A stretch of DNA of 64,000 nucleotides from NCBI GenBank assembly GCA_046051225.1, contig JBJOOR010000006.1, positions 64,161-128,160 of the forward strand. The letters run 5' to 3'. Origin of the DNA: Bacteroidota bacterium (GTDB lineage Bacteria > Bacteroidota > Bacteroidia > Chitinophagales > CAIODY01). Under the pieces are notes generated by a model. The model was not told the DNA's origin, did not search any database, and worked only from the letters and a program-made list of their open reading frames with translations. The position numbers and the translations under genes were made by a program. The first letter of the stretch is position 1, and every line of letters starts with the position of its first letter. Below are positions 4,234-59,751 of the stretch, one piece after another.

Positions 4234-4236
4234 ATA

Positions 4237-7196: not shown

Positions 7197-7199
7197 AAA

Positions 7200-12072: not shown

Positions 12073-12123
12073 GGCTTTATTATTTCACAAATTTACAATT
12101 AAACTTTATAGTTTATTAATTAT

Positions 12124-15330: not shown

Positions 15331-15356
15331 AGCTTACACAACCCTGCTCCTTTAAA

Positions 15357-15584: not shown

Positions 15585-16037
15585 ATCATACTTATATTCA
15601 TCTTTAGTTTTTTAACTGCTTGCAACACTACACAAGTTTTGACACTTAAACACAAAAGATATTATTCGGAACGAAACATTTTAACCAGCGACACTACTCG
15701 TAAATTAATAGAAATGGTTTTCTATAACAAACCTCATATAATGGATGAAGAGTTTTTCTATAAGTTGACCTTTAAATTTATTGATACAACTGCTGCAAAA
15801 CAAAAGCGACTTATAAATTTAGTTGCAGACACTACAATTCTGAAGTGCTACTACTCAATCTTTTCCATTTGGAATTGGTCAGACGAACATTATACCATGA
15901 AAGGCGACATTGAAATAGTTGAATGGAAATACAACAGCATAACTCTCAAAGAAAATGTTTTTATAAACGACATCAGACGAAAAAAGAAATTGAAATTTAA
16001 AGGCAAACGAACATTTATAAAACACGAAGGTTGGTAA
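15570..16037 (+). CDS. hypothetical lipoprotein (cassette gene)
   Basis: MRYFSIILIFIFSFLTAC has a lipobox. 155 aa with no recognisable family. Confidence 0.6.
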   Translation: MRYFSIILIFIFSFLTACNTTQVLTLKHKRYYSERNILTSDTTRKLIEMVFYNKPHIMDEEFFYKLTFKFIDTTAAKQKRLINLVADTTILKCYYSIFSIWNWSDEHYTMKGDIEIVEWKYNSITLKENVFINDIRRKKKLKFKGKRTFIKHEGW

Positions 16038-16075
16038 CAAATATTTTACAACATTTCTGCTCGTCCTCGTTTGGG

Positions 16076-16304
16076 GCATAGCAAAGTGCATAGCCAACGA
16101 GGATGCAAGAGGTATTTAGTTTATAACTTATAAATAAAACTATTGCTACAGCGGCTTAACAAGCAATTTGAAAGTTCGGTTGTTTCTGCTACTTTTGTTT
16201 TCGTGTGGCAGAGGTTAGAAACTTTAGGGGCAAGCTTTGGGGACACTGCTAACATCAAACTAACTGCAAGAACCGAATAGACAAAACCAATGAGATACTT
16301 TTCA
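16076..16304 (+). repeat. cassette repeat copy R5 (229 nt)
   Basis: Near-identical to R4. A 10-bp hairpin (tcctcgtt.gg / ccaacgagga) lies around 16063-16105. The -7 box tacttttg is present. Ends in atgagatacttttca. Confidence 0.85.
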
Positions 16305-32775: not shown

Positions 32776-35349
32776 ATGCAAAACGAAAACGAAAAGATTA
32801 TTCCCATTTTGATTGAAGACCAAATGAAAACCGCTTACATTGATTATTCGATGTCGGTTATAGTTGGTCGTGCATTGCCCGATGTTCGTGATGGTTTAAA
32901 ACCTGTTCATCGTCGTGTGTTATTTGGCATGAACGAATTAGGCATGCAACACAATAAAGCGCATAAAAAATCTGCCCGTATTGTGGGTGAGGTTTTGGGT
33001 AAGTACCATCCGCATGGCGATGCTTCCGTTTATGACACGATGGTTCGTATGGCGCAACATTGGAGCTTGCGTTACACCTTAGTTGACGGACAAGGAAACT
33101 TTGGTTCGGTTGATGGCGACCCTCCAGCAGCAATGCGTTATACCGAAGTTCGATTAACAAGATTAGCCGAAGAAATCATGATGGATTTGGATAAAGAAAC
33201 CGTTGATTTCTCTTTAAACTTTGATGATACATTAGAAGAACCAACGGTGATGCCTACTCGAATTCCTAACTTGTTGGTGAATGGTGCAAGCGGTATTGCG
33301 GTGGGTATGGCAACTAATATGATGCCTCATAATTTAACTGAAGTAATTGATGGTATTTGCGCTTACATTGATAATAAAGAAATTACTGTTACCGAAATTA
33401 TCGAGTTTATTAAAGCTCCCGATTTTCCTACAGGCGGCATTATATATGGCATGGAAGGCGTTCGACAAGGATTAGAAACAGGCAGAGGTCGTGTTGTGGT
33501 TCGTGCTAAATACGAAATTGAAACCGATGCAAAAGGCAAAGAAAAAATTATCGTTACCGAAATTCCTTATCAAGTAAATAAATCTTCGTTGATTGAGAAG
33601 ACGCATTATTTGATGCAAGAAAAAAAGATTGATGGCTTACGTGATTGCCGTGATGAAAGCGATAGAGAAGGAATGCGTATAGTTTATGAAATGAAAAATG
33701 ATGGCAATGCACAAGTTGTCATCAACCAATTATTTCAACAAACTGAATTGCAAACAAGCTATGGCGTTAATAATGTGGCATTGGTAAAAGGCAGACCGAT
33801 ACAATTAAATGTGTTGGATATGGTTCGTGAATTTGTAAGCTTCCGCCATGAAGTGGTTGTTCGCCGTACACAATTTGAATTACGTGAAGCCGAAAAACGT
33901 GCACACATTTTAGAAGGTTACATGAAAGTAATCGGTACTAAAGATGATTTGGATAGAGCGATTAAAATTATCAGAGAAAGTAGCACACCTGATATTGCAC
34001 GAACAGAATTGATGGCTGGTTTTGAATTATCTGAAATTCAAGCCAAATCAATTTTAGAATTAAGATTAAGAACTTTAACAGGATTGGAGATTGACAAGAT
34101 TCGTGAAGAGTATGAAAATATCATGAAAATCATCAATCATTTAAAAGAAATATTGGCTAACGAATCTTTAAGAATGCAAATTATTAAAGATGAAATGTTG
34201 GATATTAAAAAGCGTTTTGGTGATGCAAGAAGAAGCGAAATAGTTTATTTGGCGGAAGAAATGCGCATGGAAGATTTCATTAAAGAAGAAGATGTGGTGG
34301 TAACGATTTCGCATTTGGGTTATATCAAACGCACTGTGGCTAACGAATATCGTTCGCAAAACCGCGGTGGCAAAGGCTCGATGGGTGGCAGCACTCGTGA
34401 TGAAGATTTTATCGAACACGTATTTGTAGCATCAACACACAATACCATTTTGTTCTTTACCGAAGCAGGAAAATGCCATTGGATAAAAGTTTATCAATTG
34501 CCCGAAGGCAATAAAACTAGCAAAGGCAGAGCAATACAAAATATGTTGCAATTAGAAACTGGCGATAAAATCCGTGCATTTATCAATGTTCGCAGTTTAG
34601 AAGATGAAGAATTTATCAATAGTCATTATGTAGTGCTTTGTACAAAACAAGGTATCATCAAAAAAACAAAATTAGAAGAATTCAGTCGCCCACGTCAGAA
34701 TGGAATTATTGCGATTACGGTGAATGAAGGCGACCAATTATTGGAAGCAAAATTGACGGATGGTAATTCGCAAATATTGTTGGCAATCCACAGCGGACGC
34801 AGTATTCGTTTCCCTGAAGAAAAAGTTCGTTCAACAGGCAGAAGCTCGGCTGGTGTGTATGGTATTGAAGTGGATGAAGCGAATGATGAAGTGATAGGAA
34901 TGATTTGTGTATCGAAAGAAGATACTACTTCTACTATATTAGTGGTGTCAGAAAATGGTTATGGCAAACGAACTGCTTTAGATGAATATCGTATTACCAA
35001 CCGAGGTGGTAAAGGTGTAAGAGCATTAAACGTAACCGAAAAAACAGGAAAATTAGTTGGTTTAATGAGTGTAACCGAAGCCAACGATTTGATGATTATG
35101 TGTAAATCGGGTGTTACGATTCGTACATCGGTAAAAGATATTCGTGAGGTGGGCAGAGCGACACAAGGTGTTCGTTTAATTCGATTAGAAGAAGGTGATG
35201 AAATTGCAGCCGTAACAAAATTGGATGAAATGGAAGAAGAATCTGAAATAATATTAGATGAAAATGGCAACCCAATTGTTCCACCAACCGATTCTACCGA
35301 AACACCTGATGCAGAAGGCACAGAGCCAATTGCACCAAGTGAGAATTAA
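32776..35349 (+). CDS. gyrA: DNA gyrase subunit A
   Basis: AMRYTE active-site Tyr region, QRDR ([17 protein letters not shown]) and C-terminal beta-pinwheel repeats. Confidence 0.98.
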
Positions 35350-35357: not shown

Positions 35358-35390
35358 ACACCTGACAGGTTTTTAAAACCTGTCAGGTGT
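35358..35390 (+). terminator. 13-bp perfect hairpin immediately after gyrA
   Basis: acacctgacaggt-ttttaaa-acctgtcaggtgt. A second hairpin with a T run follows at 35399-35441. Confidence 0.7.
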
Positions 35391-35441
35391 AATACAAAAC
35401 CGCCCCGAAGTTCAAGATGAATTTTGGGGCGGTTTGTTTTT
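35371..35441 (+). repeat. direct repeat DR-L bounding cassette island 2
   Basis: ttttaaaacctgtcaggtgtaatacaaaaccgccccgaagttcaagatgaattttggggcggtttgttttt. Matches 38566-38637 with 4 substitutions and 1 indel. Confidence 0.9.
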
Positions 35442-35527
35442 GTTCTTCCGAGTTTGCAACTCGGAAAATATATTTGTTGATTTCAAATCAACAGTTAAAA
35501 ATACCGAGTTACAAACTCGACAGAACA

Positions 35528-36190
35528 TCAAGATTGACGGACTGTTGCGTTTCGCTTGTTCTCTTGATAAACTCTATACAAAATATAAATGCAAGCAGCG
35601 GTTATTAAAAATATTCCAAGTTGATTATGATATGCTGGATGGTCAGGTGGTTTTACTTTACCCAAAAAAGTTTTAACAATGAAGCTACTGATGTTGAGTA
35701 AATAAAGAATGATGACAGAATAGAGGAGCTTGTTTAGATATTTATATCTCCAAAGAATGACTGGAATTATTATAATAGATGCAAAAGTAATGACTCCATG
35801 AAGTGTTCCACCAATATCTATTGGTCCATCTAAACTAATTGATTCGCCATGACTTCTGAAACGAAGAATTACAAAAATTAAATGAATTAAATGATTGCAA
35901 GTAAACAAGGTTAGTAAAACCAAAAAAGATTCCTTTTTCTTTTCAGCACTATAAATCTTTTTCAAACCATTGTAACCAACCATTAGTAAAGTGATGAGCA
36001 TAATGAATGATGATATTCTGCCTGCTAAACGAGCACATTTGTCAAAAATAAATTCTCGTTGAATTGCAAAAAAATTATTCAAATCTAAAGTGCTTGTCCA
36101 AGTTGCCCACAAGTAAATTGATAATTCTATGCAACAAATAAGTGCAATCAAAAGTGGTAATCGTTTCTTCGTCAACATAAGTAATTTCAT
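35528..36190 (-). CDS. hypothetical polytopic membrane protein (cassette gene)
   Basis: 220 aa with about 6 hydrophobic helices. No recognisable family. Confidence 0.6.
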   Translation of the reverse strand: MKLLMLTKKRLPLLIALICCIELSIYLWATWTSTLDLNNFFAIQREFIFDKCARLAGRISSFIMLITLLMVGYNGLKKIYSAEKKKESFLVLLTLFTCNHLIHLIFVILRFRSHGESISLDGPIDIGGTLHGVITFASIIIIPVILWRYKYLNKLLYSVIILYLLNISSFIVKTFLGKVKPPDHPAYHNQLGIFLITAACIYILYRVYQENKRNATVRQS

Positions 36191-36403
36191 TTTATTAGGA
36201 TTGAAACGGATTTATGTAACTTTTATTTCTTGTAGTCAGTTTCAAGTTAGCACTGTCGCCACGGGTTGCCGCCAACGTTTCTGGGCTTTGCTGCATGGGC
36301 AGCTTGGTGTTTCCTATGCCGTCTGCCTGCACAAAGGTAATAGAAACCACAACAAGTTGGCGTTGCCCGTTAACCGCCAATGAAGCAAGCCCATGTTAGC
36401 GGT
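36191..36403 (-). repeat. cassette repeat copy R6
   Basis: On the minus strand: accgctaacatgggcttgcttcattggcggttaacgggcaacgccaacttgttgtggtttctat-tacctttg(-7 box, 36332-36339)...agaaacgttggcggcaa(36266-36275)...ATG at 36190. Confidence 0.85.
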
Positions 36404-37079
36404 AGTGCTTTTCTTGTCCGTGTAATGTCTGCAATAATTGTTTGTCAGCGTTTAATTGTTTTGAGTATGCTTTTTTTATGTCGTCAATTGTTATTTTTTT
36501 GTCCAAGTCAATTGCTAATTTGTCAATACTATTTCTGTCGGTGATGAATTTGTTTTTAGCACCGAAGTAGATGTCAAAAATATATTGCGGTGAATATTTT
36601 TGTTCCATACTTCCATAACCTCTGTAAAATTGTCCAAGCACAATGACGTCAGTGAAGCCGTCCGAATTGATGTCAGAAAACGAAACTGCTAAAATTTTTT
36701 CAAAGCAACAGTTTGGATAAGAAAAGTTTGGCGACCGATAGCAAACGCTGTCGTTGAGTTTTAAGTAAAAATTGAAATGACTCCATGATGAGTCTTTTAA
36801 ATTGAGATGTTCTGTGTAATAAAAAAAATAAGCTGAACCTTTTCCATTCAATGTCAAGTGAAATGTTTGCTCGTTAGGATTTTGTTTAGCACCTGTAAAT
36901 GTTGAATGTATGCTGTCCAACGAAACATATTCTGCGTCAGACAAAGGCTTTGGATTTGTCAATGTCATGATGCTGTTGTCTGGCAAACTGTCGAAAAGTT
37001 TTAACCTTTTCTTCGTTGTTTGTCCGAAGCAATTTGTCAAGACAAAAGTCAAAAGAAATATGGAAAATGCTTTGTTCAA
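36396..37079 (-). CDS. hypothetical secreted protein (cassette gene)
   Basis: Signal peptide MNKAFSIFLLTFVLTNCFGQ. The SDINSDGFTDVIVLGQ segment resembles an FG-GAP/calcium-binding loop. Its stop codon lies inside repeat R6. Confidence 0.6.
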   Translation of the reverse strand: MNKAFSIFLLTFVLTNCFGQTTKKRLKLFDSLPDNSIMTLTNPKPLSDAEYVSLDSIHSTFTGAKQNPNEQTFHLTLNGKGSAYFFYYTEHLNLKDSSWSHFNFYLKLNDSVCYRSPNFSYPNCCFEKILAVSFSDINSDGFTDVIVLGQFYRGYGSMEQKYSPQYIFDIYFGAKNKFITDRNSIDKLAIDLDKKITIDDIKKAYSKQLNADKQLLQTLHGQEKHYR

Positions 37080-37290
37080 ATTTGGATTATTTGAAGTCGT
37101 TTTGTCGTCATTGTTTTATTGTCAAAATGAAAATCTATTTCGTCTCAAAGCATTGCCGCCAAAGGTTTTGGGCTTTGCTGCATTGGCGGCTTGGTGTTCC
37201 GTCTGCCGTCTACCTGCACAAAGGTAGTAGAAACCACAACAAGTTGGCGTTGCCCGTCAACGGCCAATGAAGCAAGCCCATGTTAGCGGT
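37080..37290 (-). repeat. cassette repeat copy R7
   Basis: The 138-nt core at 37153-37290 aligns with 36266-36403 and is nearly identical in the promoter-upstream ~75 nt. The -7 box tacctttg is at 37219-37226 (minus strand). Confidence 0.85.
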
Positions 37291-37338
37291 TCGGTCGTCT
37301 TTTTTCTGTCGTTAGTTTTCTTGTCATTCAGTCTATTA

Positions 37339-38052
37339 CTAGTCTTTTAATTTTACTCCAAGTCTGTCAGCAAGTTCTTTTACATATTCTTTATGTCCGT
37401 TGCTTTCAATATTGTTGTAGTAGTCTTGTATTAATTTACGCCCTTTTTGTTTGTCGCTCTGTAGTATAATTAAAGCCACGTCCAATTTGGCTCTAACTGA
37501 AGAACCTTCTATAACTCCCCAATTTCTACAAATTTTGTCCCTGTTCTCAAAAGTTTCAAGCCATTGAAGTCCGTGTGAATTTAGTCCTTCAATAACTTCA
37601 ATTGCGGTCTTTTCATTGTCGTCTGAAATTGACCACCAAAGGTCTTGTTTAATTGTCAAATGAGTAAGTCGTGTTCTAATTTGGCAGTCATAGTCTTGAT
37701 AAATGTCTTTGGGTTTATTGTAGCTATCAAGTTCATAAATCTCTTTAACCATAACACCTAAGTTAACCGTAAACTTTCCATAATAATTTTCTCTAAATCC
37801 AGGAATTACATACTTGTCACCAAATTCATATCTGCCACTTTGAATATTTATTACTTGATAAATTCCGTCTTCTGTTTCTCTGTTAAATGTCCGTCCTTTT
37901 TTCTTAAATCCTAATGGTTTCAAGAAATGAAAAATTTCTTTTTGAATGTTGTCCAAATGAGTTTTAAGCTCGACCTTATTTGTCAAATTTTGGTTGTCTG
38001 ATTTTTCGTCAGCCATTTTTGGTTTGTCTTTTAAGAAGTCAAAAATTCCCAT
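37339..38052 (-). CDS. DUF4304-like protein (cassette gene)
   Basis: FLKPLGFKKKGRTFNRETEDGIYQVINIQ resembles the N-terminal signature I recall for DUF4304. Cytoplasmic, 237 aa. Confidence 0.6.
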   Translation of the reverse strand: MGIFDFLKDKPKMADEKSDNQNLTNKVELKTHLDNIQKEIFHFLKPLGFKKKGRTFNRETEDGIYQVINIQSGRYEFGDKYVIPGFRENYYGKFTVNLGVMVKEIYELDSYNKPKDIYQDYDCQIRTRLTHLTIKQDLWWSISDDNEKTAIEVIEGLNSHGLQWLETFENRDKICRNWGVIEGSSVRAKLDVALIILQSDKQKGRKLIQDYYNNIESNGHKEYVKELADRLGVKLKD

Positions 38053-38220
38053 TTGTCAACTGTTTTTTCTTTTGCTGTGTCGTCTTTTAGCCTGACCGCT
38101 AACTCGTTTATACTTGCAACTATTTCGCACTTATCCACCCATTTTCGGTTGGCTTCGTGCTACAAAGAAACACTTTATTAAATTCTCAAACAATACCAAT
38201 TGGTTTGTATGGTTGGGTGC

Positions 38221-38560
38221 TTATTTCAAAAGAGAAGGACTAATCTCAAAACTTAAGTCCGAATTTCTAAAGTAGCGTTCCTATTTCAATATTTGAGTCC
38301 TAATCTGAAAATGTGAGCTTTAATTTTCAAACATGAGTTCAGATTTCCAAAGAAGGATTCTTGTTTCCAAAAGAAGTGTCTTTATTTCCAAAGAAGCATA
38401 CTAATCTGAAATTGTGAGTTCAGATTTTCAAATTAAGGCTCTTATTTCCGAAGAAGTTTCTAAGTTTCAAAATCTGAGCACTAATCTTAAAAAGTGAGTC
38501 TTAATTTTCAAACATGAGTTCAGATTTCCAGATTAGAGTTCTAATTCCCAAAAGTATGTC
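38221..38560 (-). repeat. about 17 x 19-21-bp degenerate tandem repeat at the head of cassette island 2
   Basis: Units such as ttatttccaaagaagcatac, taatctgaaaatgtgagcttt and taattttcaaacatgagttc. A ~60-bp higher-order period is visible: 38301-38360, 38402-38460 and 38482-38541 are alike. Confidence 0.85.
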
Positions 38561-38565
38561 GTTGG

Positions 38566-38637
38566 TTTTAAAAACCTGTCAGGTGTAATACAGAAACGCC
38601 CCGAAGTTCATGATGAATTTCGGGGCGGTTTGTTTTT
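38566..38637 (+). repeat. direct repeat DR-R bounding cassette island 2
   Basis: ttttaaaaacctgtcaggtgtaatacagaaacgccccgaagttcatgatgaatttcggggcggtttgtttttt. Carries only the 3' half of the gyrA hairpin plus the second hairpin and T run. Confidence 0.9.
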
Positions 38638-38660
38638 TCTTTTTTCAATTTTAAACCAAC

Positions 38661-51067: not shown

Positions 51068-52576
51068 TTATTTACTTACCATAACTTTTTCTGTTTTTAA
51101 AATTTTGTTATCGGCGTTTCTTAATTGAACAAAATATTCGCCCGAAGCCCAGTTTGAAGTTTCAACTACTTCGCTTCCGATTGTTGAATGAATAGATTTA
51201 TTCAACAATATTTTTCCATTCAAATCCATTACTGATAAATTATAACCTGCATTATTTTCAGCAACAAAATTTACTAAAAAATAATTTGAAGCAGGATTAG
51301 GAAATATTTTGATATACGAATTGTTACTCAAATCGTTTGTTGATAATGCTTTTGAAGTAATAAACGAATGGGTATTAGTATAAAAACTACTGCAAGTAGC
51401 AGCAGGATTAAATGCAACAACCAACCATTTATAAAATACAGATTCTTTCAAATTATCGTTTGCATAAATATTGGCTGTGGTATCCGAAGTTATTTTACTC
51501 CATACTTGGTTTGTATTGTTGCCTTGCTTATACACTGCTACACAATATTTTGTAGCACCAGCCACACTATGCCATTTAAAATTAATGAAATCGGCAGGCA
51601 AAGTTTCACCATTGGGTGTAATTAATCCTATAGTATCATTTATTTGAGTTGAATTTTGTGGCAGATTCAAATGCCAATTAAAATGAAATGTATCTAACGA
51701 GGCTTGCATGGCAGCTATTTGTTCTTTGCTGAACTTACTTAAACATATATCGTCAAAATTGCTCATATACAATGATGAATCAGTATTTAATGGAACACCG
51801 TTGGGGTCTTTATATCTGCAATGGTTAGATATACAACTTACCCTATCTATATTATAATCTGGTGGCGTATCGCAAAATTTATCTGCCACAGCATGGCAGT
51901 TGCTGCCATCCATTTTTTCTAATGTTTGCGGTACAATATAACCAGCTGATGGCTGATTCCAACAAGAACTATCATATACTTGAATATTTTGAAAAGTATG
52001 CGGCAAACTAAAATAATGACCTATATCATGTGTAAGTACAGTTGAATTTTTACCGCCACAAGCGCCAATCAGTACTACCACATCTCGTGTTGGCGAATAA
52101 TATCCACAAAGCCCTGGAGAACCATTAACAAAAAAAATATTTATAGCATTTAAAGTAAAATGCTTACTGCTTTGCATAATAGAATCTGCCATAGGATTAG
52201 TTTCTGAAGCATCATTATAAAACAAAGTATTGTTTATATAATCAATATCCTGATATAGAAAAAAATGGAAATTGATTGAATCTCTGGTAAAACGCATATT
52301 CAAATCGCATATATCATCAAATAATTTTTGAAGTGGGTAATAGCCCGTATGATCATCATTCCCTACAATATGAGCTTTGATAGGAATATAAATAGTAGTG
52401 TTTTTCTTTTTTCTGTATTGTGGCAATCCATCATTGCGTTGGTATGCATCAAGCCAATCTGCTTGTGTTTTACTTAATTCGGTGTTGCATCGGCTAGGTC
52501 TTTCGGTAGTTTGAGCATTTGCATTGTTGCTAAACAATAGAATAATGAAAACTAAAAAAATGAAATTATTTTTCAT
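51068..52576 (-). CDS. M43 (pappalysin/cytophagalysin)-like protein with T9SS CTD; zinc motif reads HDIGH
   Basis: VLTHDIGHYFSLPHTF (codons cat gat ata ggt cat checked on the DNA), a signal peptide, and the C-terminal IFPNP... CTD. Confidence 0.8.
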   Translation of the reverse strand: MKNNFIFLVFIILLFSNNANAQTTERPSRCNTELSKTQADWLDAYQRNDGLPQYRKKKNTTIYIPIKAHIVGNDDHTGYYPLQKLFDDICDLNMRFTRDSINFHFFLYQDIDYINNTLFYNDASETNPMADSIMQSSKHFTLNAINIFFVNGSPGLCGYYSPTRDVVVLIGACGGKNSTVLTHDIGHYFSLPHTFQNIQVYDSSCWNQPSAGYIVPQTLEKMDGSNCHAVADKFCDTPPDYNIDRVSCISNHCRYKDPNGVPLNTDSSLYMSNFDDICLSKFSKEQIAAMQASLDTFHFNWHLNLPQNSTQINDTIGLITPNGETLPADFINFKWHSVAGATKYCVAVYKQGNNTNQVWSKITSDTTANIYANDNLKESVFYKWLVVAFNPAATCSSFYTNTHSFITSKALSTNDLSNNSYIKIFPNPASNYFLVNFVAENNAGYNLSVMDLNGKILLNKSIHSTIGSEVVETSNWASGEYFVQLRNADNKILKTEKVMVSK

Positions 52577-52599
52577 GATAAATTATTTTATGATGAATT

Positions 52600-52648
52600 A
52601 AAAAGCCCTGTACAAATATGGTGGTTTATACAGGGCTATATTTTTTTT
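52600..52648. terminator. hairpin terminator between the two protease paralogs
   Basis: agccctgta ... tacagggct flanked by A and T runs. Confidence 0.65.
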
Positions 52649-52663
52649 GAAAATCTATTTTTA

Positions 52664-54178
52664 TTATTTACTTACCATAACTTTTTCTGTTTTTAAAATT
52701 TTGTTATCGGCGTTTCTTAATTGAACAAAATATTCGCCCGAAGCCCAGTTTGAAGTTTCAACTACTTCTGTTCTGCCATTAGCAGCAATTTGTTTGTTAT
52801 AAACTTGTTTGCCCGAAATATCAAATACCGTAAGTGTATAATTTCCAACAGTTGTTTCAGAAATATAATTTACAATAAAATAATTATTTACAGGGTTAGG
52901 ATAAATTTTGAAAGATGAAACAGAAGAAATAGTATTAATACCTGTAGCAGCCGAAGGAGAGAATTGAACAGCTGCGCCAAAAGTACCACATGGTTTACCA
53001 GGATTATATGCCATTACTTTAATATTATACAATACATTTTCAACCAAATTTGCATTAGCATAAAATGCAGCAAAAGTATCAGTAGTCATTACACTCCAAA
53101 CTTGGTTTGTAGCATTACCTTGCTTATAAATAGCCACACAATATTTGGTAGCACCAGGTACAGATGTCCAACTACATGTAACAAAATCGGCAGGTGGTGT
53201 ATCAATTGTATTAGGTGTTATTAAAGTAGGCGTACCTGTAACGGCATTAAAGTTTTGAGCAAGATTTAATAAATAACCAGCACGAACTGTATTATAATTA
53301 GCTTGCATAGCGCCTCGTTGCTCATGGCTAAAACGAGTAACACAAATATCATCAGCATAACTCATGTATAAAGAACTGTCTGGTCTAACAACTACGCCAT
53401 TTGGGTCTTTTCTTAGTGTGCAGATAAATGGGCATGCCCATCTATCAGGATTGTAATCGGCTTTTGTATCACAAAATTTATCGCCAGCTACATAGCAATT
53501 GCTACGATCTACTTTTTCTGGATTTGTTGGTTTCGACATACCTGTTTTTACAATGGTATCACAGTTAGCATCCCATACACCTTCCCAGCCATTAAAAGTA
53601 TGAGGTAAGCTAAAATAATGTCCTACTTCATGAGCAACTGTGGTTGCATTATGACCACCACAAGCGCCAATAATAACTACTACATCTAATCCTGGAGAGA
53701 AATAGCCGCATAAGCCTGGCGATGCAGAAACGAAGAACATATTTAAAGCACCCGAACGATGGTGTAAAGAGCTATTCATGATAGAATTTGCCATTGGGTT
53801 AGTTTGCGAACCATCATTATAAAATGAAGTATTATTAATGTAATCAATATCTTCATATAAAAAGAAATGGATACCAATAGAATCTCTATCGTAACGCATG
53901 TTTAATTCGCATACATCGGCAAATAATTTTTGTAAATCATAATACCCCGAACCATCATCTTTTCCTACTATATGCGCCTTAATAGGCACATATACAGAAT
54001 AAGTGTTTTTTTTGCGATACACTTCCGAAGCATCATTACGTTGGTATTCATCTAACCAATCTAATTGGGCTTTACTTAGTTTAGTGCCACACCAATTTGA
54101 TGGTTTCGCATCTTGTGCATTTACTTTTGCAAAGCAAAGCATCATTAAGAGTAGATAAGTAAAAGTTTTTTTAATCAT
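52664..54178 (-). CDS. M43-like zinc metalloprotease with T9SS CTD
   Basis: VAHEVGHYFSLPHTF (HExxH). Start taken at ATG 54178 (MIKKTFTYLLLMMLCFAKVNAQ signal peptide) rather than the track start at 54262. Confidence 0.8.
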   Translation of the reverse strand: MIKKTFTYLLLMMLCFAKVNAQDAKPSNWCGTKLSKAQLDWLDEYQRNDASEVYRKKNTYSVYVPIKAHIVGKDDGSGYYDLQKLFADVCELNMRYDRDSIGIHFFLYEDIDYINNTSFYNDGSQTNPMANSIMNSSLHHRSGALNMFFVSASPGLCGYFSPGLDVVVIIGACGGHNATTVAHEVGHYFSLPHTFNGWEGVWDANCDTIVKTGMSKPTNPEKVDRSNCYVAGDKFCDTKADYNPDRWACPFICTLRKDPNGVVVRPDSSLYMSYADDICVTRFSHEQRGAMQANYNTVRAGYLLNLAQNFNAVTGTPTLITPNTIDTPPADFVTCSWTSVPGATKYCVAIYKQGNATNQVWSVMTTDTFAAFYANANLVENVLYNIKVMAYNPGKPCGTFGAAVQFSPSAATGINTISSVSSFKIYPNPVNNYFIVNYISETTVGNYTLTVFDISGKQVYNKQIAANGRTEVVETSNWASGEYFVQLRNADNKILKTEKVMVSK

Positions 54179-54433
54179 TTGTTTATTTAGTTTATTTTGG
54201 TTCTTACTTTTTTTTGTTCGGCAAATATAAATGAAAATACGAGTTAAAAAAGTTTTTTTCATTCGTATCCATCAACTTTAAGTTTTGCTATATTAATTGT
54301 CGAAATAAAAAACGAAAGGGTTGCATCGAGATAAAAATATTTTTTATTTCAAAAACTTTTTTTGATTTCATAAAAATTGATTTGTACTTTTCAAAACTGA
54401 AAACAAAATACTAATCATTCAAACTTACAACAC

Positions 54434-57055
54434 ATGAATATCATCGACATTAAAGTAATGAAAGGACCAAACTATTGGTCAGTGCGCCGTCACAAGCTAA
54501 TTGTAATGCGATTAGATTTGGAAGACATGGAGCAAAAACCCACCGATAAAATTGATGGTTTTTTAGAACGCTTACAAGCATTAATGCCCTCGATGCAATC
54601 GCATCGTTGCAGCGAAGGCTGCGATGGTGGCTTTTTTATGAGGGTAAAAGAAGGCACTTGGATGGGGCATGTGATTGAACATATTGCTTTAGAACTGCAA
54701 ACATTAGCAGGTATGGATGTGGGTTTTGGCAGAACCAGAGAAACATCTACACCCGGTATTTATCATGTGGTGTTTAGTTATTTTGAAGAAAAAGCTGGCA
54801 TATATGCAGCAAAAGCAGCAGTAAAAATTGGGCAAGCTTTAACCGATAATGTGCCTTATGATTTAACTGATGATATTAATAATCTTCGTGAGTTGAGAGA
54901 AGATGAACGCCTTGGACCATCTACTGGTAGCTTGGTTGAAGAAGCTGTGAAAAGAAAAATTCCTTACATCCGTTTGAATAAAAGTTCGTTGGTACAGTTG
55001 GGTTATGGTGTAAATCAAAAACGTATTCAAGCCACAATTGCTTCAACAACATCAAGCATTGCAGTTGAAATTGCTTGCGATAAAGAAGATACAAAAAATA
55101 TTTTAAGTGCTGCTGAAATCCCTGTGCCAAAGGGTTTGATATGTGTTGACCATGAAGATTTAGAAGCTGCCATAAAAAAAATTGGTTATCCAATTGTTAC
55201 CAAACCTATTGATGGCAATCATGGCAAAGGTGCAACTACTGATATTAAAAATTGGGACGAAGCTGTTATCGCATTTGAAGCAGCAAAAAAATATTCAAGA
55301 AAAATTATTGTTGAAAAATTTATCACAGGTTTCGATCATCGAATTTTAGTGATTAACTACAAATTTATTTGTGCAGCCAAACGTACACCAGCAGCGGTGT
55401 TGGGCGATGGCAAATCTACCATTCAACAATTAATTGATAAAGTAAATGAAGACCCACGAAGAGGTTACGGACATGAAAAAGTTTTAACATCAATTAAAGT
55501 TGATTCATTTACTGAAAAAATATTGGCTGATAAAAATATTACTTTAGAAACCATTTTACCAAAAGGCGAAGAGCTTTGGTTGAAGCCTACAGCAAATATT
55601 TCGACTGGTGGTACAGCTACTGATGTAACTGATTTGGTGCATCCTTCCAATGTTTTTATGTGTGAACGAATTGCCCGAATTATTGGATTAGATATTTGTG
55701 GAATTGATATTATGGCTGAAAATTTAAGTGAGCCATTGAGTGAAAATGGTGGCGCAATTTTAGAAGTAAACGCTGCACCTGGCTTCCGTATGCATTTAGA
55801 GCCTACTATTGGTTTGCCACGAAATGTAGCTGAACCTGTGATTGATATGTTGTATCCACCTGGAGCATCGGCTCGTATTCCGATTATTGCCATTGGTGGT
55901 ACAAATGGTAAAACAACTACTACCCGAATGATGGCGCATATTGTAAAACAAATGGGACATAAAGTTGGCTTTACAACCACCGATGGTGTGTATATTCAAA
56001 ATCAATTAATGATGAGAGGCGATTGCACAGGACCAATTAGTGCTGAATTTATTTTAAAAGATCCTACTGTTGATTTTGCAGTTTTAGAATGTGCCCGTGG
56101 TGGAATTTTACGAGCAGGATTAGGTTTTCATAATTGCGATATTGCTATTGTAACCAATGTAGCCGCCGACCATCTTGGGTTGCAAGGCATTGATACGATG
56201 GAGCAATTAGCCCGTGTGAAAGCAGTAGTACCCGAAAGTGTATTGCCCGAAGGTTATGCCATTTTAAATGCTGATGATGATTTGGTGTATGCCATGCATA
56301 AAGATTTGGCTTGCAAAGTGGCTTATTTTAGTTTAGATGAAAATAATCCGAGAATCAAGAAACACTGTGCTGAAGGTGGTTTGGCGGCTGTTTACGAAAA
56401 CGGTTATGTAACTATTATGAAAGGCACTTGGAAAATTAGAGTTGATAAAGCAAGTAATTTCCCAATAACATTTGGTGGCAAAGCCGAGTTTAATATTGCC
56501 AATGTATTGCCTGTTGTATTAGCATCGCACATTCGTAATTTTAAAATTGAAGATGTGAAGCAAGCTTTGGAAACCTTTGTGCCATCGGCTGCACAAACAC
56601 CTGGGCGTATGAATATGTTCCATTTCAAAAACTTTACGGTGATGGTTGATTATGCTCACAACACACATGGTATTATGGCGATTGGGAAATTTGTGAAGCA
56701 AGTGGAAGCTACAAAACGAATTGGTGTAATTGCTGGAGTGGGGGATAGACGTGATGAAGACACGATTTCGTTAGGTGCTGAAGCGGCTAAAATATTTGAT
56801 GAAATAATTATTCGTCAGGATAGAAATTTACGTGGCAAAAGCGAACAGGAAATTATTGATTTGATTCTGCAAGGCATAAAATCGGTGAATCCAAATTTAA
56901 AAGTTACGGTATTCAAACAAGAAAAAGAATCCATCGACTTCGTTATTAAAAATGCACCAAAAGGAGCATTCATCACCATTTGCAGCGATGTAGTGCCTGA
57001 TGCTTTAGACCAAATTATGCGATTGAAAGAAGAAGAAGGAGCAGTGGTGGTTTAA
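54434..57055 (+). CDS. cphA: cyanophycin synthetase
   Basis: 873 aa. N-terminal MKGPNYWS..., an ATP-grasp middle domain, and a Mur-ligase-like C-terminal domain (GTNGKTTT). Confidence 0.93.
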   Translation: MNIIDIKVMKGPNYWSVRRHKLIVMRLDLEDMEQKPTDKIDGFLERLQALMPSMQSHRCSEGCDGGFFMRVKEGTWMGHVIEHIALELQTLAGMDVGFGRTRETSTPGIYHVVFSYFEEKAGIYAAKAAVKIGQALTDNVPYDLTDDINNLRELREDERLGPSTGSLVEEAVKRKIPYIRLNKSSLVQLGYGVNQKRIQATIASTTSSIAVEIACDKEDTKNILSAAEIPVPKGLICVDHEDLEAAIKKIGYPIVTKPIDGNHGKGATTDIKNWDEAVIAFEAAKKYSRKIIVEKFITGFDHRILVINYKFICAAKRTPAAVLGDGKSTIQQLIDKVNEDPRRGYGHEKVLTSIKVDSFTEKILADKNITLETILPKGEELWLKPTANISTGGTATDVTDLVHPSNVFMCERIARIIGLDICGIDIMAENLSEPLSENGGAILEVNAAPGFRMHLEPTIGLPRNVAEPVIDMLYPPGASARIPIIAIGGTNGKTTTTRMMAHIVKQMGHKVGFTTTDGVYIQNQLMMRGDCTGPISAEFILKDPTVDFAVLECARGGILRAGLGFHNCDIAIVTNVAADHLGLQGIDTMEQLARVKAVVPESVLPEGYAILNADDDLVYAMHKDLACKVAYFSLDENNPRIKKHCAEGGLAAVYENGYVTIMKGTWKIRVDKASNFPITFGGKAEFNIANVLPVVLASHIRNFKIEDVKQALETFVPSAAQTPGRMNMFHFKNFTVMVDYAHNTHGIMAIGKFVKQVEATKRIGVIAGVGDRRDEDTISLGAEAAKIFDEIIIRQDRNLRGKSEQEIIDLILQGIKSVNPNLKVTVFKQEKESIDFVIKNAPKGAFITICSDVVPDALDQIMRLKEEEGAVVV
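56969..57022 (+). repeat. 54-bp direct repeat copy A (inside the cphA 3' end)
   Basis: ttcatcaccatttgcagcgatgtagtgcctgatgctttagaccaaattatgcga. Matches 57657-57710 with 2 substitutions. Confidence 0.9.
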
Positions 57056-57656
57056 TTAATTTGAGAATTTGAAAATGGAGTACATAATTAAATATTGGTC
57101 GCAAATTGCTGTCATCCTATCTATTTTGGTTGGTGGGATTTCTTATTTTTTCAAGTTATTCTTTGAATCAAAAAATAAGAAACAAGAAATAATTTTCAAT
57201 CTTGTAAAAGCAAAGAAAATTGAGCAGTTGAAAGAATTTTATAAAAGCTATGTTGAATTTTATTCATTGTTAGAGAATTTAGAATTTTATGGAGGACAAA
57301 ATAGAAAAGTTGAAGAAAGTCAAATAAGAACCAATATTATTGAGCCATTCAAAAATTTTAAATCGAATTTAATGTACTTAAAAATATTTCTAAATCAAGA
57401 TGAATGCAATAGCTTTAATGAACTAGAAAAAAAATTAGACAACATTTTTCTAAAACTTGATTTTTCAGCAATCTCAAGGAATATACATGGATATATTTCA
57501 GATAATGATTTACAAAAAGATTTGAAGTATATTCGAGATGTTGTTCGGAAAACTGAAATCCCAAAACTACTTGAGAAAATAGAAGTGACTGTGAAAAAAG
57601 ATTTTGGAATTATTTAAATCTTTAATTCTTCAAATCATCACATCTTCAAACTCAAC
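57023..57656 (+). mobile_element. 634-bp single-gene insertion in the cphA 3' end (no transposase or recombinase)
   Basis: Bounded by the 54-bp direct repeats. Sub-terminal imperfect inverted repeat atttgagaatt (~57060) / aattcttcaaat (~57624). Confidence 0.55.
57075..57617 (+). CDS. hypothetical protein with N-terminal TM helix (cargo of the cphA insertion)
   Basis: ATG at 57075 (the track uses TTG at 57069). MEYIIKYWSQIAVILSILVGGISYFF, then a helical Lys/Glu-rich region. No recognisable family. Confidence 0.55.
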   Translation: MEYIIKYWSQIAVILSILVGGISYFFKLFFESKNKKQEIIFNLVKAKKIEQLKEFYKSYVEFYSLLENLEFYGGQNRKVEESQIRTNIIEPFKNFKSNLMYLKIFLNQDECNSFNELEKKLDNIFLKLDFSAISRNIHGYISDNDLQKDLKYIRDVVRKTEIPKLLEKIEVTVKKDFGII

Positions 57657-57728
57657 TTCATCACCATTTACAGCGATGTAGTGCCTGATGTTTTAGACCA
57701 AATTATGCGAATAATAGAATGTAATTAA
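57657..57728 (+). pseudogene. orphaned ancestral 3' end of cphA
   Basis: Reads FITIYSDVVPDVLDQIMRIIECN*, against the FITICSDVVPDALDQIMR-LKEEEGAVVV* tail of the intact gene. Confidence 0.65.
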
Positions 57729-57752
57729 ATTTCAATGTTTTAATTTGTTAAT

Positions 57753-58493
57753 CTATTTCTTTTCAAGAATATTTCTAATCACCACACTAGCGCAGTATAA
57801 CCCAAAAATGGCTGGCATATAAGATATAGTGCCAATGAACGAACGTTTTTTGCTTCCTTTTGGGTTGATAGTCATTTCGTCATTTTTCACTAACTCATCC
57901 GAAAATACAGCTTCAAAGCCTTTCCTGATACCAAGCCTATGCAAATATTTTCGTACATCAAATGCTAATGGACAAGTGTGCGTTTCTTCAATCGGTACTA
58001 TTTTTATTCGAGTAGGGTTTAATTTTCTACCAGCTCCCATCGAACTTATCAATGGAATTTTTTTATCCAAACAAGCTTTAATAAAATATACTTTGCTGCT
58101 TAATGTGTCTATACAATCAATGGCATAATCATACTTTGCTGCATCTAATATTTCATGCGTTTTTTCATCTCTAATATAAGCATCATAAATAATTAAATTT
58201 ACATCAGGATTGATGTCTTTAATTCGTTGTGCTAATACTTCTGTTTTTAATTTGCCTTCGGTGCTTCGTAATGCCACCAATTGGCGATTACAATTACTTA
58301 ATTCAACCACATCGGCATCTACAATGGTAATAGTGCCCACACCAGCTCGGGCAATGGCTTCGGCGCAATTGCCCCCAACGCCGCCAAGCCCAGCAACTAA
58401 TACATGAGCATTCATTAATTTCTTAATTTTTGTTGCCCCAATTAATAATTCAGTACGACTCATCCAACTTGGAACCTCTGAAACTTCTTCCAT
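57753..58493 (-). CDS. tcdA: tRNA threonylcarbamoyladenosine dehydratase (ThiF/E1-like)
   Basis: VLVAGLGGVGGNCAEAIARAGVGTITIVDADVVELSNCNRQ. Confidence 0.85.
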   Translation of the reverse strand: MEEVSEVPSWMSRTELLIGATKIKKLMNAHVLVAGLGGVGGNCAEAIARAGVGTITIVDADVVELSNCNRQLVALRSTEGKLKTEVLAQRIKDINPDVNLIIYDAYIRDEKTHEILDAAKYDYAIDCIDTLSSKVYFIKACLDKKIPLISSMGAGRKLNPTRIKIVPIEETHTCPLAFDVRKYLHRLGIRKGFEAVFSDELVKNDEMTINPKGSKKRSFIGTISYMPAIFGLYCASVVIRNILEKK

Positions 58494-58499
58494 TATTTT

Positions 58500-59630
58500 T
58501 TAGTGTTTTTTTAAATCTTCAATAATCCAATTTGCTGTTTTTTCTGATGCTTTGCTTTCGGCTAAAATAGAATTTAGTTTTTTATAATTGTTAATCATAT
58601 TAGTTCTGTAATCAGCATCGTTCAACAATTTATTGCATTCATTGGTTAAATTTTCAACTGTCAAATCATTTTGAATTAATTCTTTTACTACCAATTTATC
58701 CATGATTAAATTTACCAACGATATGTATTTTATTTTTACTAATCGTTTTCCTATTTGATAGCTTATCCAACTTCCTTTGTAGCAAACCACCTGGGGCACT
58801 TGCCATAATGCAGTTTCTAAAGTTGCTGTTCCGCTGGTTACCAATGCGGCATCAGCAGTTTGTAAAAGTTCGTAAGTTCTATTTTCAACAAATGAAATAT
58901 TGTTGGTTTTAATACCTTTCATGGCATCATCATACCATTGTTGATTTGCCGAAGTAGCTTTTGCAACAATAAATTTTGTGGTTGGAAATTTTTGAGCAAC
59001 AGCAGCCATAATAGGCAATTTTACTAGTATTTCTTGCTTTCTGCTGCCAGGCAATAAAGCAACTATCTTTTCAGCATTTGGTGTTGAATTATTATTTTTT
59101 ACATTATCACTAATCACTTCCATTAATGGATGCCCAACGTATTCAACTTCATAATTCCAAGTATCATAAAATGCTTTTTCGAATGGCAATATCACAAACA
59201 TTTTATCTACAAATTGTTTTATTTTTTTTACTCTTCCGCTTTTCCAAGCCCATACCTGTGGCGATATGTAGTAAAATGTTTTAAATTGATGTTGATGAGC
59301 AAATTCGGCTATTTTCAAATTAAATCCAGGGTAATCTACCAATATTACAGCATCTGGTTTCCATTGCAAAATATCAGCTTTGCAAAGCTTCATTTTTTTA
59401 AGAATATAAAACAAATTTTTAAATACTTCCCAAAAACCCATAAAAGCCATGTGCTTATAATGGGTAACCATAAAACCGCCAACGGCTTGCATTTTATCGC
59501 CGCCCCAAAATCTAAAATCAGCCGTAGCATCTTTTAGTTTAATGGCTTTCATTAAATTGCTACCATGCAAATCGCCACTTGCTTCGCCACTAATAATATA
59601 GTATTTCAATTTAGTTTTTTTAGAATGCAA
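58500..59630 (-). CDS. lpxB: lipid-A-disaccharide synthase
   Basis: YYIISGEASGDLHGSNLMKAIK N-terminus and ...TSGTATLETAL motif. Confidence 0.93.
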   Translation of the reverse strand: MHSKKTKLKYYIISGEASGDLHGSNLMKAIKLKDATADFRFWGGDKMQAVGGFMVTHYKHMAFMGFWEVFKNLFYILKKMKLCKADILQWKPDAVILVDYPGFNLKIAEFAHQHQFKTFYYISPQVWAWKSGRVKKIKQFVDKMFVILPFEKAFYDTWNYEVEYVGHPLMEVISDNVKNNNSTPNAEKIVALLPGSRKQEILVKLPIMAAVAQKFPTTKFIVAKATSANQQWYDDAMKGIKTNNISFVENRTYELLQTADAALVTSGTATLETALWQVPQVVCYKGSWISYQIGKRLVKIKYISLVNLIMDKLVVKELIQNDLTVENLTNECNKLLNDADYRTNMINNYKKLNSILAESKASEKTANWIIEDLKKH

Positions 59631-59751
59631 ATGTAGGTTTTAGTAAATCAATTTAGAACGATTAGTAAATGAAGATTATAAAATTGATAGTAATTATTTT
59701 ATTTATTAACGATCAAGTTTACTTACTTTTGCGCTTCAAAATTTTTATAAA

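Follow-up and report, generated by a model that had tools for sequence, protein, structure and literature searches.

A repeated cphA tail around a small gene in Bacteroidota: a possible scar of recombinational tail displacement

The cyanophycin synthetase gene cphA of a Bacteroidota bacterium is followed by a small, AT-rich gene and then by an orphaned partial copy of its own tail, as a first-pass annotation of the sequence had described. It is proposed, with roughly even confidence, that the locus was left behind when an insertion at the cphA 3′ end displaced the tail by recombination, and that this scar has since become a small variable gene slot. The locus lies in a 64,000-nucleotide stretch of genomic DNA, here called the window, and its features are collected in Table 1.

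Table 1. Features around the 3′ end of cphA, in window coordinates.
Feature	Coordinates	Strand	Evidence
cphA, cyanophycin synthetase, 873 aa	54434..57055	+	Pfam Cyanophycin_syn 1.6e-46, Mur_ligase_M, Mur_ligase_C
Copy 1, final 28 codons and stop of cphA	56969..57055	+	Repeat comparison
Short leader ending ..aatttgaaaATGG	57056..57074	+	Conserved in L001, L002 and cargo-less L179
Cargo gene ORF182, 180 aa from ATG (alternative start TTG 57069)	57075..57617	+	Relatives, structure model, Ka/Ks
3′ flank of the slot, core AATCATCACATCTTCAAAC at 57633-57651	57618..57656	+	Behind both cargo types, L001 and L002
Copy 2, orphan cphA tail	57657..57728	+	57657-57710 identical to copy 1 at 52/54 positions
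tcdA/ThiF-family and lpxB block	57711..59674	-	Pfam ThiF 1.3e-41, LpxB 1.3e-89

The repeat and the gene that it encloses

The in-frame direct repeat of 54 bp reported at first pass was borne out: 52 of the 54 sites agree between positions 56969-57022 and 57657-57710, and both copies lie in the cphA frame. Copy 1 is codon-aligned and encodes residues F846 to R863, and copy 2 continues in the same frame to a TAA at 57726-57728 (..RIIECN*). Copy 2 departs from copy 1 by one G>A change (56982/57670) and one C>T change (57003/57691). A repeat search extended the pair to 63 nt at 92% identity, which is far above the length expected by chance in 64 kb. Within the window, only 56969-57022 (up to 57031) of copy 1 still matches copy 2, the end of which (57711-57728) is degenerate and truncated and reads IIECN*. 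The tcdA-lpxB block, with the tcdA/ThiF-family gene at 57753-58493 and lpxB at 58500-59630, joins copy 2 immediately past ..IMR. The repeat structure is not an assembly artefact, because the locus sequence is identical in three independent assemblies (JGI 3300047563, Logan SRR35185529 and Logan SRR35185530), across which no polymorphism was found in the window strain. For both ORF182 and the ThiF-family protein, exact-sequence look-ups led back to the same strain only.

The cphA gene is intact, with its own tail reading ..IMRLKEEEGAVVV*. The first-pass annotation had taken LKEEEGAVVV for a replacement tail brought in by the insert, and the orthologues reverse that reading. Tails of the LKEEE type (..IM.LKEEE..) occur in ~160 of ~160 cphA orthologues and a RIIECN ending in none; because of these orthologues, LKEEEGAVVV is the ancestral cphA tail, and RIIECN is what remains of a truncated and decayed copy of it.

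The 634 bp between the repeat copies contain a single ORF, running from ATG 57075 or TTG 57069 to 57617, and encode no recombinase, in agreement with the first reading. GC content is 22–27% in the insert versus 36–41% in cphA, and ORF182 has the lowest GC (0.25) among the 50 large ORFs in the window (mean 0.328, sd 0.032). From its Ka/Ks of 0.15 against the L001 counterpart, ORF182 is judged to be a real gene under selection. The modelled protein pairs a TM helix at its N-terminus with a four-helix bundle (AF2 pLDDT 76, pTM 0.61). Foldseek comparison of this model with the PDB returned generic four-helix bundles only, the best being a de novo design (E 0.014), and profile searches against Pfam, PADLOC, PHROGs, NCBIfam and PDB gave nothing over threshold. 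A tblastn search of plasmid and phage collections gave no match. The earlier statement that the protein belongs to no recognisable family thus holds for curated libraries only, as an uncharacterised family of 74 representative clusters, all full length, does exist. This widespread family comprises ~180-aa, membrane-anchored helical-bundle proteins that behave as mobile cargo.

The conserved leader is native cphA-downstream DNA and gives a start codon to any cargo in the slot. No terminator is predicted between cphA and ORF182, and the two genes are probably co-transcribed. On the other side of the cargo, the 3′ flank ends at a sharp junction with copy 2 and does not resemble the part of cphA that precedes copy 1. 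The 19-nt flank core is conserved in three slot alleles; it occurs once in the window and is absent from all other loci (182 loci scanned) and from IMG/VR. Between the window and L002, the flank plus copy 2 are about 80% identical, compared with 69% at cphA third codon positions, and because the flank outconserves these positions, its core is possibly a functional site. The sub-terminal inverted repeats proposed at first pass (atttgagaatt / aattcttcaaat) did not withstand comparison: the match is 11/12 with an indel, in AT-rich DNA, and neither L001 nor L002 preserves the pair in its homologous flanks. Rfam families had no match at the cphA locus, the gyrA island, L086, L177 or L181.

The slot in related genomes and an independent case

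Two relatives carry the slot. L001 has an ORF182 homologue (92% at the amino acid level) and a degenerate second tail copy. L002, with a cphA gene that is 86% identical at the nucleotide level, has an unrelated 181-aa cargo between the same flanks (hhalign probability of 0.08%). The second tail in L002 is complete and ends ..LKEEEGAVVV*, stop included, so that the full repeat unit spans 87–88 nt (2118-2205 versus 2835-2922, 84%). L002 lacks the 182-aa gene, has a cphA that ends in LKEEEGAVVV and possesses the downstream copy, the combination that the first-pass annotation had itself named as refuting its reading. Its orphan reads ..IMRLKEEEGAVVV*, which further contradicts the notion of a replacement tail. 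The second copies of L001 and L002 reach into, or wholly through, the LKEEEGAVVV* part, and the repeat copies in these genomes differ at 7–11 sites of the 54-nt core, of which L001 copy 1 contributed 41 nt to the comparison. In every slot, the cargo is AT-richer than its neighbours (GC 0.25–0.27 versus 0.38–0.40).

The window, L001 and L002, lineages up to Ks 0.72 apart, share one left junction, with an identical edge, as well as the leader and 3′ flank. Gene content right behind copy 2 differs in each of the three, and the L002 DNA past the copy 2 stop aligns to window positions ~59675-59751, a stretch that lies immediately ahead of the gene for aldehyde dehydrogenase. The slot structure is old and common to all three lineages; the shared junction and flanks, together with the two unrelated cargos, do not support a recent insertion of one gene into the window genome. 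The single origin of the slot is drawn from the shared junction and flank. Two shared derived bases, A14 (window and L001) and T35 (window and L002), were considered as proof that the second copies share an ancestor and were rejected, because they are GC-to-AT transitions in an AT-biased genome (rough chance ~0.1) and could recur.

Divergence within the slot is uneven. Compared with L001, the window has diverged by ~20% in the flank and copy 2, a value close to Ks 0.23, and the two copies in the window differ from each other by only 3.7%. Private changes in copy 2 number 0 in the window and about 8 each in L001 and L002. A core gene common to the window and L001, sought for comparison with the cargo Ks, was not present in the sequence compared. 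Sliding identity of the window cphA against L002, L003 and L004 revealed no discontinuity near the 3′ end. In tblastn searches of all fetched loci, the L060 and L002 cargo proteins matched their own loci only. A metagenome scan with the cphA tail yielded no close relative (best match 75% identical), and its matches were used only as a panel for tail-duplication screening.

In keeping with the first reading, relatives without the structure exist: the second tail copy is absent from the outgroups L003, L004, L177 and L179. Inside the clade of the window, L001 and L002, an empty allele, in which cphA is followed directly by the tcdA, AHSA1 or aldehyde dehydrogenase gene, was not found.

A similar duplication arose independently in a member of the Flavobacteriales, L060, which has a second copy of the final 56 nt of its own cphA 1.15 kb further downstream (93% identity). 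The 1.1-kb insert ends in a truncated adenylate-cyclase fragment that adjoins copy 2, and its end resembles a random DNA end. Among ten repeat pairs detected in 940 kb, two end exactly at the cphA stop.

Tail displacement and competing origins of the slot

Events of the homology-facilitated illegitimate recombination (HFIR) type combine RecA-type anchoring with an illegitimate join, typically during natural transformation. It is proposed that an ancestor of the window, L001 and L002 clade received the 3′ part of a cphA gene with its stop codon and foreign downstream DNA. On the left, the incoming DNA would have recombined homologously within cphA; on the right, an illegitimate join would have formed inside the resident cphA, 28 codons ahead of its stop. 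cphA would thereby have been kept intact, and the resident tail shifted downstream as a functionless orphan, copy 2. No dedicated recombinase would be required. The donor-derived copy, 1 or 2, is not distinguishable by sequence. Correspondingly, the locus displays an orphan 3′ end downstream without the rest of the gene, homology confined to coding sequence, a sharp junction, inserted DNA of foreign GC content and, in L060, an arbitrary distal end.

Both flanks are homologous to cphA, the left one to its body and tail and the right one to the tail. A simple double crossover could therefore transfer the complete slot to the cphA gene of any relative, irrespective of the downstream context. Cargo would be exchanged by the replacement of one ORF with another, the conserved leader and 3′ flank marking the limits of the exchange. 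Copy 2 would decay neutrally, as is partly shown; in the window, it may have been re-homogenised with copy 1 by gene conversion, and its LKEEEGAVVV* part would have been lost where the tcdA-lpxB block adjoins. The cargo ORF182 is, as is again partly shown, a selected and probably cphA-co-transcribed gene for a small membrane-anchored helical-bundle protein. There is about an even chance that the slot is an old recombination scar through which small membrane-protein genes are swapped, and not a self-contained mobile element.

The edges of homology bear on how the second copy arose. In the window, L001, L002 and L060, the similarity between copies extends rightward no further than the stop codon and is cut off on the left by a sharp junction; beyond these edges, local alignments do not exceed shuffles (all p > 0.26). 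Homology limited to the coding part is as expected for copies derived from two alleles that share coding sequence only. A tandem duplication running from the cphA tail through the native neighbour, with later loss of the second neighbour copy, is largely refuted by the same alignments past the stop codon, which are no better than shuffles, and by cargo that is compositionally foreign and differs between lineages. This origin is considered very improbable, even though the leader past the cphA stop is native and present in cargo-less L179 too, and TAATTAATTTGAGAATTTG, which follows copy 1, bears a weak, post-hoc likeness to TAATTAAATTTCAATGTTTT, which follows copy 2.

An origin in situ, by a staggered-break insertion or a replication template switch that duplicated a 56–88 bp target, with later decay of copy 2, would account for two observations: every difference between copies 1 and 2 in the window and L060 is non-synonymous, as in the neutral decay of a true duplicate, and the window copy 2 is closest to copy 1 of its own genome. 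However, two independent events (L002 and L060) have repeats whose right edge falls on the stop codon, with nothing similar beyond, and a mechanical duplication has no reason to end there. As three different downstream contexts and the swap of cargo are also left unexplained, this origin is rated improbable.

Tail displacement itself encounters several difficulties. The limits of both cargos lie almost precisely at the start and stop codons of their ORFs, a precision not predicted for unaided recombination; to invoke selection for in-frame capture of the native ATG would be ad hoc. The near-perfect 54 nt in the window need the extra step of gene conversion, the well-conserved 3′ flank core could be a functional site, and no empty allele occurs within the clade, copy 2 being absent only from outgroups. 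Alternatively, the duplicated tail could be the working part of a recombinase-free mobile cassette, or an unknown trans-acting system could target coding 3′ ends in Bacteroidota; these ideas together are given a low probability. In such a cassette, a copy of the last ~55–90 bp of the gene at the far end would supply two homology arms to one gene, allowing a circle of ~0.7 kb to loop out or the unit to enter related genomes by host recombination alone. Were either idea true, the L060 case, the codon-precise re-use of the slot and the conserved flank core would represent a general mode of gene mobility.

The search for recombination machinery bears on a further origin, a decayed site-specific integrative element. 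CIMEs are decayed ICE/IME remnants that are bounded by att repeats and are found at the 3′ ends of protein-coding genes, including fda, rpsI and rpmG (PMC7563491). At cphA, an integrase-bearing element would have entered the 3′ end with an attP that restores the tail, and later deletions would have left only cargo between attL and attR, which a related element could mobilise in trans. Like CIMEs, the slot holds AT-rich cargo without a recombination gene between direct repeats of a conserved gene 3′ end, and in principle it could be mobilised in trans or in cis. A tail-restoring attP would also give repeats with the stop codon as their limit, two independent events struck this one gene end (the two cphA-stop pairs in 940 kb), and the conserved 3′ flank core could serve as an arm site. 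In contrast to CIMEs, a parent integrase-bearing element is neither known nor found for cphA: a regex heuristic covering only ~3 kb of flank per locus detected no ORF with a tyrosine- or serine-recombinase motif near ~170 cphA loci. The sole viral contig with cphA in IMG/VR has a Mu-like transposable prophage ~400 bp downstream, with no integration at an att site, and the flank motif is missing from IMG/VR and all other loci. Furthermore, the insert in L060 terminates within a host-type gene, which is truncated, and has no element arm there, the slot (0.63–0.69 kb) is smaller than classical CIMEs (1.2–13 kb), its ends do not appear element-like and lack conserved inverted repeats, and the identical core in the repeat copies is no longer than the surrounding similarity. 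A decayed element of this kind is therefore thought unlikely.

That a trans-acting integron integrase inserted a gene cassette here, using a secondary site, is disfavoured and barely credible. The insert is a promoter-less, single-ORF unit of cassette size (~0.6 kb), relatives of ORF182 occur in cassette-like arrays with ~190-nt imperfect-palindrome repeats that resemble attC (L086-L089, L181), and ORF arrays with repeats between the ORFs occur in the window itself, at 14750-16304 and also behind gyrA. Unlike cassettes, the slot has no attC-like hairpin, core-site junction or integrase, and its repeat is host coding sequence. The 146 nt past ORF182 (57615-57760) fold like shuffles on both strands (z +0.11 and −0.11), the RYYYAAC...GTTRRRY pair is not conserved in L001 or L002, there is no G|TT junction, and cassette insertion does not duplicate a target of 54–88 bp. 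The gyrA island, for which a shared mechanism had been suggested, has a duplicated terminator at its bounds and repeat-separated ORFs on the other strand; it has no junction motif in common with the cphA slot, and nothing links the two.

A diversity-generating retroelement was considered separately and rejected: no reverse transcriptase ORF lies between or beside the copies, and the changes from gene to orphan are G>A and C>T.

Related systems and implications

C-terminal displacement with homology-facilitated illegitimate recombination is the accepted model for orphan 3′ ends (PMC5361080, PMC3150448). Passages in these two papers, with Jackson et al. 2009 cited there, credit the orphan 3′ ends of Rhs, CDI and T6SS effector loci to that recombination. 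As in those loci, a conserved upstream coding region would act as homologous anchor at cphA, new DNA would bring its own gene end, and the old end would be moved downstream, promoter-less and partly conserved; the repeats would permit later recombination, and no dedicated recombinase would be involved. The variable part of Rhs, CDI and T6SS loci is a toxin C-terminus with an immunity gene, whereas cphA, a biosynthetic enzyme gene, keeps its encoded tail and it is a distinct small gene following it that varies. Moreover, the cphA slot has one orphan copy only, with no array, and nothing marks its cargo as a toxin or immunity protein.

Between 10 and 18% of small variable segments in bacterial genomes lie between direct repeats (PMC2884548). 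The cphA slot is likewise a sub-kb to kb, strain-variable segment between conserved genes, with repeats able to mediate deletion. That category is descriptive and implies no mechanism, and the slot departs from it in that the repeat is the coding tail of the upstream gene and unrelated genes occupy the same slot across species.

The ORF182 family is flagged here as a widespread, uncharacterised group. For annotation, repeat-flanked islets are not automatically integrative elements, and short orphan gene tails are marks of recombination history. If tail displacement is the right reading, the cphA slot would be a clean, small-scale case of accessory genes becoming fixed beside conserved genes without mobile-element machinery. 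A single illegitimate join would give cargo two homology arms to the same core gene, and ordinary recombination would then carry that cargo between species of different gene order.

The cphA repeat pair and the ancestral tail

The 3′ end of cphA, which encodes an intact cyanophycin synthetase, carries one copy of a direct repeat whose two copies are identical at 52 of 54 positions and can be extended by repeat search to 63 nt at 92% identity. The mismatches are G>A at 56982/57670 and C>T at 57003/57691. Copy 1 is codon-aligned within cphA, and copy 2, an orphan cphA tail, stays open in the cphA frame as far as a TAA codon at 57726-57728. A single ORF, ORF182, separates the copies; it lies in a GC trough of 22–27% (cphA, 36–41%) and has the lowest GC content among 50 large ORFs of the window. 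The sequence is identical in three independent assemblies of the same strain, so the repeat structure is not an assembly artefact.

Positions of features in the window and, where a locus is named, in related loci
Feature	Positions	Remarks
Tandem repeat, 21-nt unit	12035-12454	At least 14 copies; overlaps ORF 12026-12415
Three small ORFs (154, 155, 133 aa)	14750-16304	No clear family; ~719 bp spacing
gyrA	32776-35349	Island behind
Duplicated 93-nt terminator region	35368-35460; 38564-38656	85% identity; not coding sequence
Island behind gyrA	35461-38563	Bounded by the terminator copies
149-nt island repeats	36255-36403; 37142-37290	
Degenerate ~20-nt tandem repeats	38243-38554	~310 bp; ..ctaatctcaaaa / tttccaaag..; no Rfam match
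Paralogous secreted proteins (502, 532 aa)	51068-54262	Por_Secre_tail (T9SS) C-terminal domain
cphA (873 aa)	54434-57055	Cyanophycin_syn 1.6e-46; Mur-ligase domains
Copy 1	56969-57022	
ORF182	57075 (ATG) or 57069 (TTG) to 57617	TAA stop at 57615-57617
Copy 2	57657-57710	
L059 gene end	3855-4161; 5563-5869	Orphan; source
L060 cphA end	3766-3821; 4916-4971	Copy 1; copy 2
L083 hairpin	4540-4615	z -5.3
L086 repeats	1214-1402; 2466-2635; 3477-3674	~190 nt
L177 segment	~820-1020	~200 nt; no Rfam family at threshold
L181 repeats	440-646; 941-1143	~190 nt; 498 bp apart
L183 prophage	1281-8848	

The first-pass annotation had placed both copies correctly, but its interpretation was right only in part. 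It took the functional end of cphA for a replacement tail and ..RIIECN for the orphaned ancestral C-terminus. Among 80 cphA 3′ ends from species-representative genomes and 80 from metagenomes, all terminate in an acidic ..IM.LKEEE or LKEAE-type tail and none in RIIECN; in the closest relatives (L001–L004) the gene ends exactly in LKEEEGAVVV. This makes the functional tail ancestral and the proposed polarity wrong. The relative L002 combines a different ORF, the LKEEEGAVVV end and a downstream copy, an arrangement that the annotation itself had named as refuting its reading.

Just upstream of cphA lie two tandem paralogous genes for secreted proteins, with 73–80% nucleotide identity over long stretches.

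The slot in relatives and in an independent lineage

On a 1.9 kb ENA contig (L001), the cphA tail is followed by an ORF 92% identical to ORF182, by the 3′ flank seen in the window and by a second copy in a more advanced state of decay (FINVYCDVVPDALDLITRLEKKNE..); next come a gene of the AHSA1 family and an ABC transporter. At the same site, L002 (MAG Umea3p1_bin-1165; cphA nucleotide identity 86%, Ks 0.72) carries a multi-TM ORF of 181 aa with no relationship to the ORF182 family (hhalign probability 0.08%); the leader before it (..aatttgaagatgagaaaatttgaaaATGGA) and the 3′ flank behind it (AAATCTTCTG.TTTCCAATCATCACCTCTTCAAACCC) are the same as in the window. Its second tail is complete (FINICSNGVFDVFDKIMRLKEEEGAVVV, then a stop codon), with an aldehyde dehydrogenase gene directly after; the LKEEEGAVVV part is missing from copy 2 of the window. 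The L002 sequence after copy 2 aligns to window positions ~59675-59751, which places a tcdA/ThiF–lpxB block (57711-59674) between copy 2 and the aldehyde dehydrogenase gene in the window. The three lineages have one left junction and one flank pair in common; they carry two cargoes that are unrelated to each other, and the downstream context is different in each lineage.

The outgroups L003, L004, L177/L178 and L179 (cphA tails 83–92% at the amino acid level) have no second copy. L179 has no cargo yet retains the leader as far as ATGG, which identifies this leader as sequence native to the region downstream of cphA; a naive allele was not found within the window/L001/L002 clade. In L177, a GC-rich, apparently structured segment separates the cphA terminator from an S1-domain (CvfB-like) gene. 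Another type of orphan gene end occurs at the cphA border of L059, where a 307-nt, 97%-identical copy of the C-terminal part of a downstream 529-aa gene, by its sequence probably a T9SS-type sorting domain, directly follows the cphA stop.

In 161 screened cphA 3′ ends, a downstream self-copy was found only in the window/L001/L002 clade and in L060, a Flavobacteriales MAG whose cphA is 67% identical. Here the last 56 nt of cphA, including the stop, recur at 93% identity beyond an insert of ~1.1 kb with two small ORFs without family; a truncated adenylate/guanylate cyclase domain (C-terminal 45 residues) adjoins copy 2 on the other strand. As background, 940 kb of these loci contained only 10 direct-repeat pairs of at least 40 nt and at least 80% identity with a spacing of 250–3500 bp, and two of the 10 end exactly at the cphA stop codon.

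A comparison of the window with L001 gives about 80% identity over the 3′ flank plus copy 2, near the synonymous divergence of the cargo, which indicates that the orphan drifts roughly neutrally. Mismatches between the two copies of one genome in the 54-nt core number 7 over the 41 comparable positions in L001, 11 over 54 in L002 and 2 over 54 in the window. Copy 2 of the window has no private change; most simply, copy 1 recently overwrote it by gene conversion in this lineage. As the two window differences are GC-to-AT transitions, possibly recurrent, they are not taken as evidence of descent.

The ORF182 family and cassette-like arrays

ORF182 is a real gene, with a Ka/Ks of 0.15 at Ks 0.23 against L001. 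An exhaustive HMMER search returned 74 representative clusters, all of ~170–185 aa and matching over their full length. The AlphaFold model (pLDDT 76, pTM 0.61) predicts an N-terminal hydrophobic helix leading into a four-helix bundle, with generic fold matches only. Since 20 nt separate the cphA stop from the ORF182 start and no terminator is predicted between them, co-transcription of the two genes appears likely from sequence. The ORF182 stop is in frame with copy 2 in the window genome, and hypothetical readthrough would add IFNSSNHHIFKLN-FITIYSDVVPDVLDQIMRIIECN; this relation is probably coincidental, because a 1-nt indel disrupts the frame in L001.

Family members occupy varied accessory contexts, which argues that gene-tail duplication is a property of the cphA site and not of the gene family. 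At L082, L083 and L090 they lie between housekeeping genes without flanking repeats. At L083 the family member has a CCG-domain gene on one side and adenylosuccinate lyase on the other, and an 86-nt, near-perfect hairpin (CAGCTAAGCGCC...GGCGCTTAGCTG) stands directly 3′ of it. At L086–L089 and L181, members belong to arrays built on ~190-nt imperfect-palindrome repeats, similar to integron attC sites. Those of L086 start with CTAACA.ACGCC, end with GGTCGTTAG and set apart unrelated small genes, including the family member, downstream of a RelA_SpoT-domain gene. Together with the similar repeats of L087–L089, they resemble long attC sites from an integron cassette array, with only modest folding support (z -1.3, -2.1). 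The marine-sediment contig L181 has two internally palindromic repeats, another attC-like array. Insertion of an integron cassette at a secondary site is nevertheless a very improbable origin for the cphA slot, where attC is missing.

The island behind gyrA contains three minus-strand ORFs, one DUF4304 and the others without family. A 149-nt repeat lies behind both the second and the third ORF, starts with ACCGCTAACATGGGCTTGCTTCATTGGC on the gene strand and has a weak end-to-end fold (z -1.5, -2.2); the island could be an attC-like cassette array without integrase. Degenerate tandem repeats separate its last ORF from the second terminator copy. The idea that this island and the cphA slot share a trans-acting mechanism finds no support, as the island is terminator-bounded and no junction motif is common to both; the most they could have in common is an origin through anchor-gene recombination. 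Elsewhere in the window, highly conserved ~240-nt intergenic repeats (164 nt at 92%, 78 nt at 97%) precede the ORFs at 14750-16304 and extend into their start codons, forming either a cassette-like or a paralogue array.

Origin of the slot

Direct observation yields an orphan tail, a shared junction, homology confined to coding sequence, a cargo of foreign composition, an arbitrary distal end in L060 and an absence of element features. Beyond the repeat, past the stop and upstream of the left edge, local alignments in the window, L001, L002 and L060 do not exceed shuffles. The 146 nt 3′ of ORF182 show no secondary structure (z about 0, both strands), Rfam match or terminator, and the sub-terminal inverted repeat reported in the first-pass annotation is not conserved in relatives. 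The flank core AATCATCACMTCTTYAAAC occurs once in the window, is limited to the slot and is absent from the other fetched loci and from IMG/VR contigs. A heuristic screen of the ~3 kb flanks of about 170 cphA genes detected no ORF bearing tyrosine- or serine-recombinase motifs. The anatomy of the slot fits a CIME-like remnant of an integrase-borne element (PMC7563491), which is unlikely given that no parent element was found. The sole viral contig with a cphA end (IMG/VR; L183) has a Mu-like transposable prophage ~400 bp downstream, encoding a CI/LexA-type repressor, a 672-aa transposase-like protein and a 313-aa MuB-like ATPase. A diversity-generating retroelement (DGR) was rejected: no reverse transcriptase is present, and the substitutions show no adenine specificity.

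It is proposed that homologous recombination anchored in cphA, with an illegitimate join 28 codons before the stop (18 codons in L060), created the slot. Such a join would preserve cphA and displace the resident tail. Long target duplication in situ is a poor prospect, for it gives no reason to end at a stop codon in two independent events, and simple tandem duplication a poorer one, as the downstream neighbour should have been carried along and is not. Once formed by the anchored recombination, the slot would have two homology arms, both matching one conserved gene. A simple double crossover, with cphA as the left arm and copy 2 pairing with the recipient's own tail as the right, could then install it in a naive genome and leave the recipient's downstream genes right after copy 2. 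Transfer of this kind would account both for the three downstream contexts and for the varying state of the right part of copy 2: L002 has it intact, L001 in degenerate form, and in the window it is truncated. By the same logic, one cargo could be exchanged for another between the conserved leader and flank. The weak points of the scheme are the missing naive allele within the clade, the codon-precise cargo boundaries, the conserved flank core and the additional gene-conversion step it requires.

C-terminal displacement and homology-facilitated illegitimate recombination have been proposed for the orphan modules of Rhs, CDI and T6SS systems (PMC5361080, PMC3150448), and the scheme advanced here is that same model, applied to a biosynthetic gene with an unchanged tail. 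The cphA slot is best read as a further example of an already known type of recombination scar, with an uncharacterised cargo family.
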